Origin: Peduovirus P22H1 | Strand: one strand, 5' to 3' | Sequence record: NC_049386.1 | Length of the DNA: 32,662 bases | Part shown: piece after piece, positions 11,920-17,545 of the stretch | Layout of the letters: each line of letters begins with the position of its first letter | Position numbering within the stretch: position 1 is the stretch's first letter | Made by a program: the position numbers and the translations under genes | Notes under the pieces: generated by a model | What the model was told of the DNA's origin: nothing | Seen by the model: the letters and a program-made list of their open reading frames with translations, nothing else | The model's database searches: none

Positions 11920-14679
11920 ATGAGCACGAAATTTAAAACCGTTATCACTACTGCCGGAGCCGCGAAGCTGGCAGCCGCCACTGTTCCCGGCGGGAAAAAA
12001 GTAAACCTGTCTGCAATGGCTGTGGGTGACGGTAATGGCCAATTGCCGGTGCCGGATGCCGGTCAGACGAAACTGGTGCATGAAGTCTGGCGTCATGCAC
12101 TGAATAAAGTCAGTGTGGATAACAAGAATAAAAACTATATCGTGGCTGAACTGGTTGTTCCGCCAGAAGTGGGCGGCTTCTGGATGCGTGAGCTTGGTCT
12201 GTATGACGATGCCGGAACACTGATTGCGGTATCCAACATGGCAGAAAGCTATAAGCCAGAACTGGCTGAAGGCTCCGGACGTGCGCAGACCTGCCGCATG
12301 GTTATTATTCTCAGCAACGTGGCGTCCGTTGAGCTGAGTATTGATGCCAGCACAGTGATGGCGACGCAGGATTACGTCGATGACAAAATCGCAGAGCATG
12401 AGCAGTCCCGCCGCCATCCTGACGCCACGCTGACAGAAAAAGGTTTTACTCAGTTAAGCAGTGCAACAAACAGCACCAGTGAAAAGCAGGCTGCAACGCC
12501 AAAGGCAGTAAAAGCAGCCTATGACAATGCTGAGAAACGTCTGCAGAAAGACCAGAACGGTGGCGATATTCCAGATAAGGACGCTTTTCTGGACAATGTT
12601 GGCGTTACCAGCCTGACGTTTATGAAAAACAATGGCGAAATGCCGCTTGATGCTGATCTGAATACATTTGGTCCCGTTAAGGCTTATCTGGGAATCTGGT
12701 CTAAAACTACCTCAACTAACGCAACACTGGAGAAAAATTTCCCGGAAGATAATGCTGTCGGTGTGCTTGAGGTTTTTGCTGCCGGCAATTTTGCAGGTAC
12801 GCAACGCTTCACCACGAGAGACGGCAATGTATACATACGCAGACTCGCCAATAAGTGGAATGGCTCTGATGGTCCGTGGGGCATATGGCGTCACACTCAA
12901 TCAGCTACCCGCCCTTTGAGTACGACTATAGACCTGAATACGCTTGGAGCCGCCGAACATCTTGGTTTATGGCGTAACAGTAGCTCGGCTATAGCTTCAT
13001 ATGAACGCAATTATCCAGAGGAAGGCGGCTTTGCTCAGGGGATGCTTGAGATCCTCGAAGGCGGAAATTATGGAAGAACGCAACGTTATACCACTCGCCG
13101 TGGAAATATGTATGTCCGCTGCCTTGCGGCAAGCTGGGATGCATCAAATCCGCAGTGGGAACCGTGGTTAAGAGTCGGTCATCAGTCAGAGAGTCGTTAT
13201 TACGAAGGTGATTTGAATGATGTAACCTCACCAGGTATTTACAGCGTTACAGGTAAAGCGACCAACGGTCCAGTACTGGACGGAAACGGCGTGACTGTAC
13301 TCGGCATTCTGGAAGTGTTGAGGCGGTTTGATGGTGTTAATGTATGGCAGCGTTATACAACTGCCGGAACAGGTACAACCCTTAAAGGCCGCACCTTTGA
13401 GCGCGTCTTTACCGGCAGCTCATGGAGCGAATGGCGGGAAGTCTACACCTCGTATTCACTTCCCCTGAATCTGGGTATCGGCGGTGCTGTGGCAAAGCTC
13501 ACCAGCCTGGACTGGCAGACCTACGATTTTGTGCCGGGCAGTCTGATAACCGTTAGGCTGGATAATATGACCAATATTCCCGACGGTATGGACTGGGGCG
13601 TCATTGATGGCAACCTGATAAACATCGCAGTTGGTCCGAGTGATGATTCCGGTACGGGGCGCTCAATGCATGTATGGCGCAGCACTGTAAGTAAAGCGAA
13701 CTACCGATTTTTTATGGTGCGTATTTCAGGAAATCCGGGAAGCCGCACGATCACAGCAAGACGAGTACCAATCATTGACGAAGCCCAGACATGGGGCGCG
13801 AAACAGACATTCAGTGCTGGCCTTTCTGGTGAACTGTCCGGCAATGCGGCGACAGCAACAAAGCTGAAAACAGCCCGTAAAATTAATAACGTTTCGTTTG
13901 ATGGAACATCAGATATTAACCTGACGCCGAAAAATATTGGTGCATTTGCTTCAGGAAAAACAGGAGACACCGTTGCGAATGATAAAGCCGTTGGGTGGAA
14001 CTGGAGTAGCGGAGCCTATAACGCAACTACTGGTGGGGCATCAACGTTAATTCTTCATTTTAATATCGGTGAAGGAAGTTGTCCCGCCGCCCAGTTCCGC
14101 GTTAATTATAAGAACGGCGGTATTTTTTATCGTTCTGCTCGTGACGGTTACGGATTCGAGGCTGACTGGTCTGAGTTTTATACCACAACGCGAAAACCTA
14201 CAGCGGGAGATGTCGGTGCACTGCCGTTATCTGGTGGTCAATTGAATGGTGCTCTGGGTATAGGAACATCCAGTGCTCTTGGCGGTAATTCGATTGTTTT
14301 GGGTGATAATGACACGGGCTTTAAACAAAATGGTGATGGTAATCTGGATGTTTATGCTAATAGCGTCCATGTTATGCGCTTTGTCTCGGGAAGTATTCAA
14401 AGTAATAAAACCATAAATATTACGGGGCGTGTTAATCCCTCGGATTACGGTAACTTTGATTCCCGCTATGTCCGGGATATCCGGCTTGGTGGTGCTGCCA
14501 CATACAAACCTGCGAACAATGGCATGACATGGACACATCAGGCACCGTCCGGGTGTGTATATTCCGGCATTATTGTTCAGGATACCGGCTCAAACTCTGC
14601 CGATAACATTGGTGGTGTATATTACAGACCGGTTCAGAAATACATTAACGGGACATGGTATAACGTGGCGCAGGTATAA
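11920..14679 (+). CDS. H: Tail fibre protein gpH with an extended, divergent C-terminal region
   Basis: 919 aa; N-terminus MSTKFKTVITTAGAAKLAAA is P2 H-like, but P2 H is about 669 aa; three degenerate tandem domain repeats are visible in the middle. Confidence 0.85.
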   Translation: MSTKFKTVITTAGAAKLAAATVPGGKKVNLSAMAVGDGNGQLPVPDAGQTKLVHEVWRHALNKVSVDNKNKNYIVAELVVPPEVGGFWMRELGLYDDAGTLIAVSNMAESYKPELAEGSGRAQTCRMVIILSNVASVELSIDASTVMATQDYVDDKIAEHEQSRRHPDATLTEKGFTQLSSATNSTSEKQAATPKAVKAAYDNAEKRLQKDQNGGDIPDKDAFLDNVGVTSLTFMKNNGEMPLDADLNTFGPVKAYLGIWSKTTSTNATLEKNFPEDNAVGVLEVFAAGNFAGTQRFTTRDGNVYIRRLANKWNGSDGPWGIWRHTQSATRPLSTTIDLNTLGAAEHLGLWRNSSSAIASYERNYPEEGGFAQGMLEILEGGNYGRTQRYTTRRGNMYVRCLAASWDASNPQWEPWLRVGHQSESRYYEGDLNDVTSPGIYSVTGKATNGPVLDGNGVTVLGILEVLRRFDGVNVWQRYTTAGTGTTLKGRTFERVFTGSSWSEWREVYTSYSLPLNLGIGGAVAKLTSLDWQTYDFVPGSLITVRLDNMTNIPDGMDWGVIDGNLINIAVGPSDDSGTGRSMHVWRSTVSKANYRFFMVRISGNPGSRTITARRVPIIDEAQTWGAKQTFSAGLSGELSGNAATATKLKTARKINNVSFDGTSDINLTPKNIGAFASGKTGDTVANDKAVGWNWSSGAYNATTGGASTLILHFNIGEGSCPAAQFRVNYKNGGIFYRSARDGYGFEADWSEFYTTTRKPTAGDVGALPLSGGQLNGALGIGTSSALGGNSIVLGDNDTGFKQNGDGNLDVYANSVHVMRFVSGSIQSNKTINITGRVNPSDYGNFDSRYVRDIRLGGAATYKPANNGMTWTHQAPSGCVYSGIIVQDTGSNSADNIGGVYYRPVQKYINGTWYNVAQV

Positions 14680-14682
14680 TTT

Positions 14683-15210
14683 ATGCAGCATTTAAAAAAT
14701 ATTACGGCGGGTAATCCAAAAACGGTTGAACAATATCAATTGACAAAAGACTTTGATGTTGTCTGGTTTTTTTCAGAAGATGGTAAGAACTGGTACGAAG
14801 AACAAAAGTATTTTGCTGATGACACGCTAAAAATAGCGTACGACAAAGATAATATCATCCGCTATGTGGAAAAGGATGTGACAGCTATCAGACCGGATGG
14901 ATTAAGTGTTGTTGAAGTGGCGGATATTACTGCTAACCGACGGGCGGACATTTCAGGGAACTGGATGTTTAAGGACGGCAAAGTGATTAAACGCATTTAT
15001 ACGGCAGAGGAATTGCTGCAGCAGGCAGAAAACCGGAAAGCCAGACTTCTTGCAGATGCTGAATCCGTGATTTTGCCGCTGGAGCGCGCGGTCAGACTGA
15101 ACATGGCAACAGATGAGGAGCGTAGCCGACTGGATGCATGGGAGCGTTACAGCGTTCTGGTCAGTCGTGTGGATCCTGCAAATCCTGAATGGCCGGAAAT
15201 GCCGCAATAA
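14683..15210 (+). CDS. G: Tail fibre assembly chaperone gpG
   Basis: 175 aa, the P2 gpG length; directly after H. Confidence 0.8.
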
Positions 15211-15431
15211 GTTGTATGATCTCTGGAGTGAGCAAACATATCTATGGCACAGAGTAAAGCCTAATCTGACAGGCCGCTCTGTGTCTGGAGTAGATTTTAG
15301 TAAAGCATTATTTTATTAGTGCAAATTCTAATCAATACATTTTATGTATATGATATCCTGCAGACTTTAATGACTTGGTTTAGGCTAACCAGATAACACT
15401 GAAGGAATATTTTTGATAATTAAGGTGCGGT

Positions 15432-16025
15432 ATGTTTACTAAGCGACGATTAAAAAATATTAACTGGGAGGCAAGTTCAGTGATTCTTGCTATGGTTCTC
15501 TTTGTTGGAAATATATTTTATACAAATCATCGTGATGATATAACTATGGAGGCTGAGAGGGACAGTATCAGAACAATGTTTGCATATGAAATCGCTAATA
15601 ACCATCGCGCTCTCACTTTTCTTGATAAAACGAGATATATTGGCTTTGACGAAAATTCGGAGCATTTTGTTGGCGAGCCTTTTGCCATTAATGTCAAATC
15701 ATTAGGGGGGCCTCGCTTACAGATTGCATTAAACCAGACTGATAAAGTGTTTAAATCCTACTTCAGCGAATTAAGTAAGCTTGATAAAGAGGATGTTACT
15801 CTTCTTATGGACTATTACCATGAGCAAAGCATCCTGCTGGAGCGTGTAAAATCTACGTTACAGAAGATGAAAAGTGGTAATGATATTAAAGTTGATATTG
15901 ATGGTTACTTATTAGAAGAACACTTCATGAATGAGCTTAATCTTTCTAATATTTTGCTTAAACGCTATAGCCATTTGTTGTCACAACACACCAAAGAACA
16001 TAAAACAAAAGATTTACATAATTGA
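15432..16025 (+). CDS. Hypothetical membrane-anchored protein in the Z/fun variable slot (accessory/moron gene)
   Basis: 197-aa ORF with Shine-Dalgarno AAGGTG four nt upstream; N-terminal hydrophobic helix (SSVILAMVLFVGNIFY); AT-rich relative to flanking tail genes; occupies the P2 Z/fun position. Confidence 0.6.
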   Translation: MFTKRRLKNINWEASSVILAMVLFVGNIFYTNHRDDITMEAERDSIRTMFAYEIANNHRALTFLDKTRYIGFDENSEHFVGEPFAINVKSLGGPRLQIALNQTDKVFKSYFSELSKLDKEDVTLLMDYYHEQSILLERVKSTLQKMKSGNDIKVDIDGYLLEEHFMNELNLSNILLKRYSHLLSQHTKEHKTKDLHN

Positions 16026-16231
16026 TAATCTGCTAATGGTTATTCATGGGGTAACTATGTTTTATATGTAATCCAACTCAGATGAATTATTGATTCTGGA
16101 TAATAACCGCAGAGCGGTATATACCCTGACAGGCAAATGTCCGCTTCTTGTTCAAAGCAGACCGTCAGATTTGATAACTTTTGGGCTATGTAAATTGTCA
16201 GTCGGAAAATGAGTGAGTTCAAATCAGGACA

Positions 16232-16258
16232 GGCGGGCGAATTGCCCGCCTTTTCTTT
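16232..16258 (+). terminator. Rho-independent terminator closing the Z/fun-slot transcript
   Basis: Perfect 7-bp stem GGCGGGC-gaatt-GCCCGCC followed by TTTTCTTT. Confidence 0.6.
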
Positions 16259-16354
16259 ATCTGTTGTTTCATCCACTGACCAGCCAGGTCAAATAGCGTC
16301 TCATGCTCTGCACAACAGAAAATAGTTGCACCCATTAACCACGGAGTTAAACGG

Positions 16355-17545
16355 ATGAGTGACTATCATCATGGCGTGCAGGTGCTGGAGATTAACGACG
16401 GCACCCGCGTCATTTCCACCGTATCCACTGCCATTGTCGGCATGGTCTGCACGGCCAGCGATGCGGATGCGGAAACCTTCCCCCTCAATAAACCTGTGCT
16501 GATTACCAATGCCCAGAGCGCAATTGCAAAGGCCGGTAAAAAAGGCACGCTGGCGGCATCGTTACAGGCCATCGCCGACCAGTCAAAACCGGTCACCGTT
16601 GTCGTGCGTGTGGAAGACGGCACCGGCGAAGACGAAGAAACGAAACTCGCGCAGACCGTTTCCAATATCATCGGCACCACCGACGAAAACGGTCAGTACA
16701 CCGGACTGAAAGCCCTGCTGGCGGCGGAGTCGGTAACCGGTGTTAAACCGCGTATTCTCGGCGTGCCGGGACTGGACACCAAAGAGGTGGCTGTTGCACT
16801 GGCATCAGTCTGTCAGAAGCTGCGCGCTTTCGGGTATATCAGCGCATGGGGCTGTAAAACCATTTCCGAGGTGAAAGCCTACCGCCAGAATTTCAGCCAG
16901 CGTGAGCTGATGGTCATCTGGCCGGATTTCCTCGCATGGGATACGGTCGCCAGTACCACCGCCACCGCGTATGCCACCGCCCGTGCGCTGGGGCTGCGTG
17001 CTAAAATCGACCAGGAGCAGGGCTGGCATAAAACGCTGTCCAACGTCGGGGTGAACGGTGTTACCGGCATCAGCGCATCTGTATTCTGGGATTTGCAGGA
17101 GTCCGGCACCGATGCTGACCTGCTGAACGAGGCAGGCGTCACAACGCTGATTCGCCGCGACGGTTTCCGCTTCTGGGGTAACCGTACCTGCTCTGATGAC
17201 CCGCTGTTCCTCTTTGAGAACTACACCCGCACTGCGCAGGTGCTGGCCGACACGATGGCTGAGGCGCACATGTGGGCTGTGGATAAGCCCATCACCGCAA
17301 CGCTGATTCGCGACATCGTTGACGGCATTAATGCCAAATTCCGTGAGCTGAAAACAAACGGCTATATCGTGGATGCGACCTGCTGGTTCAGCGAAGAATC
17401 CAACGATGCGGAAACCCTCAAGGCCGGAAAACTGTATATCGACTACGACTATACACCGGTGCCTCCTCTCGAAAACCTGACCCTGCGCCAGCGTATTACC
17501 GATAAATACCTGGCAAATCTGGTCACCTCGGTTAACAGCAATTAA
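16355..17545 (+). CDS. FI: Tail sheath protein gpFI
   Basis: 396 aa, the P2 FI length; synteny. Confidence 0.9.
   Translation: MSDYHHGVQVLEINDGTRVISTVSTAIVGMVCTASDADAETFPLNKPVLITNAQSAIAKAGKKGTLAASLQAIADQSKPVTVVVRVEDGTGEDEETKLAQTVSNIIGTTDENGQYTGLKALLAAESVTGVKPRILGVPGLDTKEVAVALASVCQKLRAFGYISAWGCKTISEVKAYRQNFSQRELMVIWPDFLAWDTVASTTATAYATARALGLRAKIDQEQGWHKTLSNVGVNGVTGISASVFWDLQESGTDADLLNEAGVTTLIRRDGFRFWGNRTCSDDPLFLFENYTRTAQVLADTMAEAHMWAVDKPITATLIRDIVDGINAKFRELKTNGYIVDATCWFSEESNDAETLKAGKLYIDYDYTPVPPLENLTLRQRITDKYLANLVTSVNSN

Follow-up and report, generated by a model that had tools for sequence, protein, structure and literature searches.

Cargo genes between G and FI of P2-like phages

P2-like phages carry a recognised cargo site, the Z/fun slot, between the tail-fibre assembly gene G and the tail sheath gene FI (PMC3573123, PMC9519451, bioRxiv 10.1101/2024.10.15.618418). 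The site has been described as 'moron position 2' of these phages (PMC3573123) and as the second defence-enriched locus of P2, where three experimentally selected defence systems were located (Vassallo et al., 2022; PMC9519451), and it is a mixed-purpose hotspot that also swaps tail-fibre genes (bioRxiv 10.1101/2024.10.15.618418). Here, we analyse the occupant of this slot in Peduovirus P22H1 (NC_049386.1), whose 32,662 nucleotides are referred to below as the window. The slot holds a single AT-rich open reading frame (ORF) of 197 amino acids, the cargo gene, at 15432–16025 on the plus strand. An earlier inspection of the letters, made without database searches (the sequence-only reading), had recognised the slot and proposed the ORF as a candidate exclusion or defence gene. 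The hotspot itself is already known; what is new is its uncharacterised occupant, for which an envelope-level role in phage exclusion or defence is, in our estimate, the leading but tentative explanation.

The P2 fun/Z gene blocks phage T5 and confers sensitivity to fluorodeoxyuridine (FUdR). It shares with the cargo gene the G–FI position, the same conserved flanks, and the character of a non-essential lysogenic-conversion cargo, but its product is a protein of 528 amino acids (NP_046777) with a P-loop-like GEKGTGKT motif, encoded on the opposite strand. The sequence-only reading had taken the occupant to be something other than the Z/fun protein, and this is borne out: the best BLASTP match between the two has E = 2.1 over 19 residues, which, with the differences in length and strand, rules out Fun(Z) under another name. 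Neither protein has a Pfam match. The two genes are best regarded as alternative cargoes of one slot, not as alleles. A different kind of occupant is neaT, carried at the same moron position 2 by prophage phi-b0847 of strain CFT073; it too is a single AT-rich foreign gene (PMC3573123), but it encodes a multi-pass acyltransferase (PF01757) on the opposite strand, has a virulence phenotype, and is unrelated to the cargo gene in sequence and architecture. The PD systems of the Z/fun hotspot lie in the same slot of E. coli P2-like prophages, one system per slot (PMC9519451). The cargo protein is none of these described systems and belongs to no other PADLOC family.

In its proposed mode of action, the cargo protein would be a functional analogue of T4 Imm, P22 SieA/SieB, and lactococcal Sie2009, phage-encoded inner-membrane proteins that block genome entry. 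These differ from it in architecture and size and have no Pfam or PHROG match to it; none of them is known to have a transmembrane (TM) helix that is continuous with a four-helix bundle. HK97 gp15, a membrane protein that acts at DNA entry with PtsG and the tape measure protein as its partners, offers a likeness in genomic setting. Its small gene is inserted singly among the tail genes, carries the annotation 'moron product', and is immediately followed by a putative terminator. Its product has only 62 amino acids and no helical-bundle domain.

A one-gene insert under purifying selection

The window is a complete P2-like phage genome with the P2 gene order (portal/terminase, capsid, lysis, baseplate, tail fibre H/G, FI, FII, tape measure, D, ogr, int, C, cox, B, A, and an accessory region). 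The conserved neighbours of the slot, both on the plus strand, are gene G on the left (14683–15210; near-identical records call its product tail fiber assembly protein) and FI on the right (16355–17545; identified by its ORF and by the annotation of identical and near-identical records). The sequence-only reading had treated the whole interval between them, 15211–16354, as the variable slot. The ORF does lie between G and FI, but the insert proper is shorter. In a BLASTN comparison, homology to P2 ends at 15283 and restarts at 16140, which leaves an insert of 856 bp at 15284–16139. Both ends of the interval are P2 backbone: on the left 15211–15283, with most of a stable hairpin (15100–15283 is 89% identical to P2), and on the right 16140–16354, with an intrinsic terminator followed by the pF late-promoter region (16140–16398 is 84% identical to P2). 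In P2-like phages that lack the cargo ORF, the match to the query begins only at about 16135.

The GC content is 32–38% in 300-nt windows centred within the insert. For the cargo ORF, the value is 34.8% (33% at third codon positions), compared with 45.3% for G, 56.8% for FI, and 51.1% for the window as a whole, a difference that marks the ORF as compositionally foreign and hence, on this evidence, of foreign origin. Foreign composition is here combined with patchy presence among otherwise syntenic phages, as in a cargo moron, and the insert is most simply described as a one-gene mobile cargo in the P2 Z/fun hotspot. No flanking repeats beyond chance were found that would mark site-specific insertion. 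The edges show only a 9-bp direct repeat, CTGACAGGC, at 15266–15274 and 16126–16134, and a 19-nt inverted pair of 79% identity (15263–15281 versus 16153–16171) that spans both backbone flanks, each within the range expected by chance. These repeats may serve as microhomology for cargo swapping.

The cargo gene is the only ORF of any length between G and FI on the plus strand; it starts with ATG and is assigned to PHROG 3829. The good ribosome-binding site (RBS) claimed for it by the sequence-only reading can be read directly as a Shine-Dalgarno sequence, AAGGTG, at 15422–15427 on the plus strand, 4 nt 5′ of the ATG, and AAGGAG or AAGGTG is kept at this position in homologues. Across genera, conservation of the protein extends from residue 10 through to the C-terminus, which supports the start at 15432. 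In the annotations of the carrier phages AC1 (L013, 17235–17780) and SIDE7 (L053, 549–1094), the gene begins at an internal codon, and the resulting 181-amino acid calls lose the basic N-terminus, which is conserved, and cut into the TM helix. Similarly, a copy on an IncFII plasmid is annotated with 161 amino acids although the full reading frame is open.

Compared with its 69%-identical Pantoea and 64%-identical Salmonella homologues (L004 and L005), the cargo gene has a dN/dS of 0.14. Purifying selection together with conservation across genera argues for more than a chance ORF, and by these measures the cargo ORF is a genuine gene. Among close E. coli alleles, no signal of positive selection was detected (omega 0.17–0.72 on 3–14 substitutions).

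A membrane anchor continuous with a four-helix bundle

The N-terminal TM helix predicted by the sequence-only reading corresponds to the one hydrophobic segment of the cargo protein, residues ∼12–31 (15465–15524, plus strand). It carries the sequence NWEAsSVILAM.LF with a small-xxx-small motif formed by S16 and A20, reaches a hydropathy of 1.97 over 17 residues, and is helical in an AlphaFold2 (AF2) model; hydropathy analysis of the protein gave no second hydrophobic segment. When built from close homologues only, the AF2 model had a predicted local distance difference test (pLDDT) score of 52, and the addition of distant members raised it to 85.4, with a predicted template modelling (pTM) score of 0.73. 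In the latter model, one long helix (residues 12–66) comprises both the TM segment and the first helix of the bundle. A structured loop follows at residues 67–91 (GEPFAINLKSLGGPRL in the close family), and further helices at 92–116, 119–148, and 151–178 complete an up-down four-helix bundle that ends in a short basic disordered tail. The bundle (residues ∼39–178; 15546–15965, plus strand) is continuous with the TM helix and is predicted to be periplasmic.

The orientation is suggested by the charges that flank the TM helix, which sum to +3 on the N-terminal side and −3 on the C-terminal side of the window protein. The bias has the same sign but is weaker in most homologues. In distant members of the family, CxxxxC pairs occur only in the C-terminal domain. 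We therefore favour an N-in/C-out topology that would place the bundle in the periplasm. The cargo protein lacks both a Cys that could form a lipobox and an obvious signal-peptidase site, and the continuous helix in the AF2 model argues for an uncleaved anchor; nor is the TM helix of the Gly/Ala-rich releasable signal-anchor-release (SAR) type.

The sequence-only reading did not recognise the soluble domain, and the remainder of the protein indeed has no Pfam, NCBIfam, or PADLOC match. The structural-similarity search that it had proposed does recover the bundle fold, but only as generic bundles: Foldseek gave no match at E ≤ 0.001 in the PDB or among the viral models of BFVD, de novo designed bundles score higher than sensor domains, and a sequence profile search of PDB chains gave nothing better than E = 0.18. 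Among the known systems closest to the cargo protein are periplasmic four-helix bundles, namely the sensor domains of chemoreceptors (Tar/Tsr, PcaY, PilJ) and TorS. An assignment to the 4HB_MCP-type sensors was rejected: the cargo protein has no Pfam 4HB_MCP match, and its bundle is not placed between two TM helices with a signalling module.

Prevalence and family

At a coverage of at least 80%, the cargo interval (1144 nt) is present in 201 of 5426 complete E. coli genomes (3.7%), always on the chromosome; 1018 of these genomes match the query at all. The sequence-only reading had suggested a search for homologues at the same slot of other P2-like prophages, and such copies exist. Eleven of 50,697 deposited phage records contain the interval (11 of the 65 that match the query), all of them P2-like coliphages; phages with the cargo gene include SIDE7, AC1, D8, 12W, PhiR44_1, P24E6b, and P24B2. 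The SIDE7 and AC1 proteins are 99.5% and 94.9% identical to that of the window. Only three plasmid records contain the interval. The exact protein sequence occurs on 305 contigs and belongs to a 90% cluster of 569 members, and many carriers are human clinical E. coli isolates.

The adjoining tail-fibre gene H (11920–14679) encodes 919 amino acids in the window, and its counterparts measure 2010 nt in P2 and 2046 nt in AC1. AC1 thus shares the cargo gene yet differs in the length of H, and the cargo is therefore not tied to one receptor-binding allele. In strain WP7-S17-ESBL-01 (NZ_AP022173.1, 1938638–1971781; L050), a prophage with an identical slot appears truncated: an IS21 element lies at its portal end, the host gene yegQ comes straight after ogrK, and there is no int/C/cox/A region. 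The cargo gene has thus been retained in a defective prophage.

The cargo protein matches phrog_3829, a group of unknown function, with E = 5.7e-137 over residues 1–197 of 197; its remaining PHROG matches have E ≥ 0.035 and are also of unknown function. PGAP sometimes labels it 'lysogenic conversion protein'. Neither Pfam nor NCBIfam has a match to it, and 29 family members searched against Pfam gave scattered single matches only (E ≥ 0.002). In size, the family amounts to no more than 38 clusters among 5.8 billion, and an exhaustive HMMER scan returned 29 representatives at E ≤ 0.001 among 1.84 billion. A broader profile (A2) collects 50 proteins, with a Pfam domain only in one fragment (the unrelated PF14804), and a scan of species-representative genomes found two loci only. 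All members with a source-assigned organism are from Enterobacterales, and the genera represented are Escherichia, Salmonella, Enterobacter, Pluralibacter, Pantoea, Kosakonia, Dickeya, Pectobacterium, and Proteus. Down to 20–30% identity, they share a common plan of a basic N-terminus, one hydrophobic helix with the motif W-E/Q-A-x-S-V-I-V-A-M-x-L-F, and then the motif N-[IV]-R-x-[MIV]-x-A-x-E-I-x-x-N. Residues R47, N57, and L117 are invariant throughout the family.

Homologues on other mobile elements

We examined twelve contexts of homologues outside the P2 G–FI slot, all of them mobile elements or islands. The homologue stands alone and in its own orientation in all twelve, and in at least six its neighbours are defence or conflict genes (TIR, Lamassu, type II restriction-modification, AbiC-like, KAP NTPase, and ArdB), which strengthens the idea of an exclusion or defence function. 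In an integrase island (GCA_902810315.1; L010, 5090–6657), a 28%-identical homologue lies 39 nt 3′ of a TIR protein that matches PADLOC candidate PDC-S66. On a plasmid-like contig with a further gene for a ParA-type protein, the homologue is divergent from Lamassu LmuA/LmuB; at the end of a lambdoid Salmonella prophage, it lies directly 5′ of a type II methyltransferase/restriction endonuclease pair; in Proteus mirabilis ATCC 29906, it is divergent from an AbiC-like protein (putAbiC) and adjoins an HD-domain protein; and in a Pantoea element it adjoins genes for the ArdB anti-restriction protein and RadC. In a Proteus P2-like prophage from IMG/VR, a 32%-identical homologue occupies hotspot 1, after the portal gene (L047, 4172–6585), 45 nt 3′ of a gene for a KAP-family P-loop NTPase of 593 amino acids. 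The remaining contexts are a Pantoea island with AlpA, an IncFII plasmid on which the gene is two genes from a PIN/VapC50_C protein and its helix-turn-helix partner, a Kosakonia P4-like satellite with the homologue at the cargo position, directly after the Ash/DUF5375/primase genes, the tra region of an integrative and conjugative element (ICE), a small contig with resolvase and ParB/RepB genes, and an uninformative metagenomic contig. The distribution indicates that the cargo gene moves between types of mobile element.

A TIR partnership is not a conserved feature, as a TIR neighbour was found in one of the twelve contexts (L010) and none in the window. PDC-S66 is a PADLOC single-gene candidate; if it forms an operon with the homologue in L010, it may not be a single-gene system there. 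The KAP NTPase and the homologue in L047 are a possible two-gene module. This NTPase shows no homology to Fun(Z) and was ruled out as a relative of it.

Expression signals

Upstream of the cargo gene, a block of 36 nt (15324–15359, plus strand) contains a candidate sigma-70 promoter, with a −10 element TATGAT at 15349–15354 and a weak −35 element TTCTAA at 15326–15331. The block is 83% identical over these 36 nt to the sequence upstream of the 69%-identical Pantoea homologue, which resides in an unrelated island. In that copy, the coding DNA is 72% identical, and the upstream block and RBS region are conserved, which suggests that the gene travels with its own expression signals. A scan for consensus promoters did not call the block; its sole call was a weak site at 15393–15420.

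The strong terminator that the sequence-only reading placed at 16232–16258 is real, an intrinsic terminator with its stem at 16231–16251 on the plus strand and a U tract to about 16260 (−20.1 kcal/mol, z = −4.5 versus shuffles), but it is not part of the cassette. It lies 206 nt beyond the cargo stop codon, in the P2-conserved right flank ahead of the pF activator site; the P2 annotation places both this site and a transcription start in the stretch that matches 16140–16354. By its position in P2-conserved sequence, it belongs to the phage backbone and closes any cargo that occupies the slot. The terminator scan called no plus-strand terminator between G and the cargo ORF, and late transcription of V-H-G is therefore expected to run through the ORF. 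A second hairpin, at 15246–15285, is similarly stable (−21.3 kcal/mol, z = −3.8) and also present in P2; it has no U tract and was not called by the terminator scan. This hairpin could stabilise the mRNA 3′ end, act as a weak terminator, or mark a boundary for recombination at the slot. In a Salmonella ICE, a 52-nt stretch with 79% identity to the hairpin region (L015, 9677–9728) is found ∼4 kb away from a distant homologue. An Rfam scan of the intergenic regions gave no match near threshold.

A proposed role in envelope-level exclusion

We propose that the cargo product is a bitopic inner-membrane protein with a short basic cytoplasmic N-terminus, one conserved TM helix, and a periplasmic four-helix bundle, and that it serves the lysogen as an envelope-level phage-exclusion or defence factor, a reading to which we assign a probability of roughly 0.4. 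The conserved TM helix and the membrane-proximal R47/E53/N57 face would engage an inner-membrane component or the ejection machinery of an incoming phage, so that a heterologous phage would be stopped at or just after genome entry. This would be the same job as that of T4 Imm, P22 SieA, or HK97 gp15, performed by a protein with no sequence relation to them. A bundle that faces the periplasm and a strongly conserved TM helix with the S16/A20 motif make action at the envelope, at or just after genome entry, the most likely mode. In the lysogen, the gene would be transcribed from its own upstream promoter, and it may also be reached by read-through from the late V-H-G operon, given that the sole plus-strand terminator called between G and FI lies 3′ of the ORF. 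Topology, expression in the lysogen, exclusion, and the step of action are each inferred from these features, and from the neighbours of the homologues we likewise infer action in conflicts between mobile elements. In sum, the exclusion or defence function suggested by the sequence-only reading appears a reasonable candidate, somewhat strengthened by the present analysis.

Several observations weigh against this proposal. PADLOC-DB 2.0 (5027 models) contains no family that matches the cargo protein at E ≤ 1, the superinfection-exclusion families of Pfam and PHROG show no similarity to it, and HK97 gp15 is ruled out as a relative by an hhalign probability of 0.4% versus the family profile. A generic helix-bundle fold gives no specific pointer to function, the topology is read from a charge bias that is modest in several homologues, and the candidate promoter is a weak match to consensus. 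In the literature, we found no published phenotype for any member of PHROG 3829 and no paper that lies behind the PGAP name or mentions WP_042209895.1. The same slot also holds non-defence cargo, the neaT virulence acyltransferase of CFT073 (PMC3573123). Finally, Rousset et al. lysogenised four P2-like phages, including SIDE7 and AC1, in E. coli C (PMC9122126) and challenged them with lambda, T4, P1, 186, CLB_P2, LF82_P8, AL505_P2, and T7, a panel that does not include T5 (PMC9122126). Protection was reported for the AC1 lysogen only, against lambda and LF82_P8 (PMC9122126), and the three-gene TIR system of AC1 hotspot 1, once cloned, gave the same phenotype (PMC9122126). As SIDE7 and AC1 both carry the cargo gene and the AC1 phenotype was reproduced with hotspot 1, these data show no sign of broad protection by the cargo gene and hint that it gives none against the eight panel phages. 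The cargo protein is not a relative of the AC1 TIR and TM system; a profile search of all AC1 ORFs found the hotspot-1 TM proteins to be non-homologous.

Alternative explanations

The neighbours of the homologues also bear on a second possibility, that the protein is a membrane effector or sensor of abortive infection. Such a protein would stay idle until infection, then oligomerise through its TM helix and depolarise or permeabilise the membrane, killing or arresting the cell before phage release, either alone or upon a signal from a neighbouring module. The distant homologues 39 nt 3′ of the TIR protein and 45 nt 3′ of the KAP NTPase fit this idea, as do those that adjoin Lamassu and the AbiC-like gene. 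The TM helix is conserved far beyond the needs of a passive anchor, and TM proteins are commonly proposed in that role (PMC9122126). But the partner changes in each context and none is present in the window, so the cargo gene is no obligate component of the neighbouring systems, and the TIR neighbour itself matches PDC-S66, a single-gene candidate of PADLOC. In addition, the protein has one TM helix only, with no amphipathic or pore-like second segment, and the charge bias and paired Cys residues would put the bundle on the periplasmic side, out of reach of signals from the cytoplasm. We therefore consider an abortive-infection effector improbable.

To a non-defence form of lysogenic conversion we give a similarly low standing. 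Here the periplasmic bundle would alter the envelope physiology, signalling, or surface of the host for a gain in niche or virulence; one route would be to bind or mimic those sensor domains of chemoreceptors or histidine kinases that form four-helix bundles. The resemblance to methyl-accepting chemotaxis protein bundles agrees with such a route, but the structural match is generic, with designed bundles scoring higher and nothing at E ≤ 0.001 in Foldseek. Precedents for such cargo come from the AT-rich neaT in the same slot, which promotes the fitness of extraintestinal pathogenic E. coli in bacteraemia (PMC3573123), and from the cytolethal distending toxin at hotspot 1 of some P2-like phages (PMC9122126); that no protection was reported for the SIDE7 lysogen, and that many carriers are human clinical isolates, point the same way. 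However, the homologues are accompanied by genes for defence, anti-defence, and mobility and not by virulence genes, and a host-specific virulence role fits poorly with a family that also occurs in the plant-associated genera Pantoea, Kosakonia, Dickeya, and Pectobacterium.

Considerably less probable than either is a lytic-cycle accessory expressed by late read-through from V-H-G. Comparable to T4 RI or Imm, it might time lysis from the periplasm or prevent re-adsorption or superinfection in the final minutes of the producing cell. The cargo gene is co-oriented with the late genes, with no plus-strand terminator called between G and the ORF, and the first terminator encountered is that of the backbone at 16231–16251. 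The predicted architecture, with a membrane anchor and a small periplasmic helical domain, also resembles that of antiholins. However, homologues reside on plasmids, ICEs, satellites, and integrase islands that have neither lysis nor virion genes in their vicinity, the gene is absent from most P2-like phages (it is carried by 201 of the 1018 matching E. coli genomes), and its TM helix is not of the SAR type. Inert or decaying cargo, that is, hitch-hiking DNA with no current function, might be suspected from the lack of a known domain or phenotype, the AT-rich foreign composition, and the truncated copies present in databases, but it is very unlikely in view of a dN/dS of 0.14 over long distances, a length stable at ∼197 amino acids across genera with invariant residues, a confident compact model, and an exact sequence found on 305 contigs.

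Defence cargo at hotspot 1

The other P2 hotspot of the window, hotspot 1, follows replication gene A, and its cargo at 29622–32343 includes a type VI retron module, with an HTH_VI protein at 29622–29954 and RT_VI at 29893–30870. A 453-amino acid protein encoded at 30979–32343, on the strand opposite to the retron module, matches PADLOC candidate PDC-S15. The phage thus has recognisable defence cargo besides the orphan gene at hotspot 2.

Implications

Few reservoirs of anti-phage genes in E. coli are as dense as the G–FI slot of P2-like prophages, and the cargo gene occupies this slot in about one-fifth of the E. coli genomes that match the query, yet is absent from PADLOC-DB 2.0. A broader and more doubtful extension of the exclusion proposal is that PHROG 3829 constitutes a new family of membrane-tethered periplasmic four-helix-bundle immunity proteins. 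Its gene would be a plug-in of phages, P4-like satellites, plasmids, and ICEs of Enterobacterales, and its product would block the entry of foreign DNA (phage genomes and possibly conjugative DNA) through an inner-membrane conduit bound by the conserved TM helix. If this extension is correct, the family would represent a mechanism missing from all current defence catalogues and would give the Z/fun slot a second, mechanistically distinct 'Fun-like' activity. If the protein has no part in exclusion, it would still be a lysogenic-conversion gene that is frequent among clinical E. coli. If envelope-level exclusion is its function, the cargo gene would add a new and very compact single-gene family to the defence repertoire, help explain gaps in the host range of therapeutic coliphages on clinical strains, and provide a simple model for how a membrane-tethered helical bundle can block genome entry.

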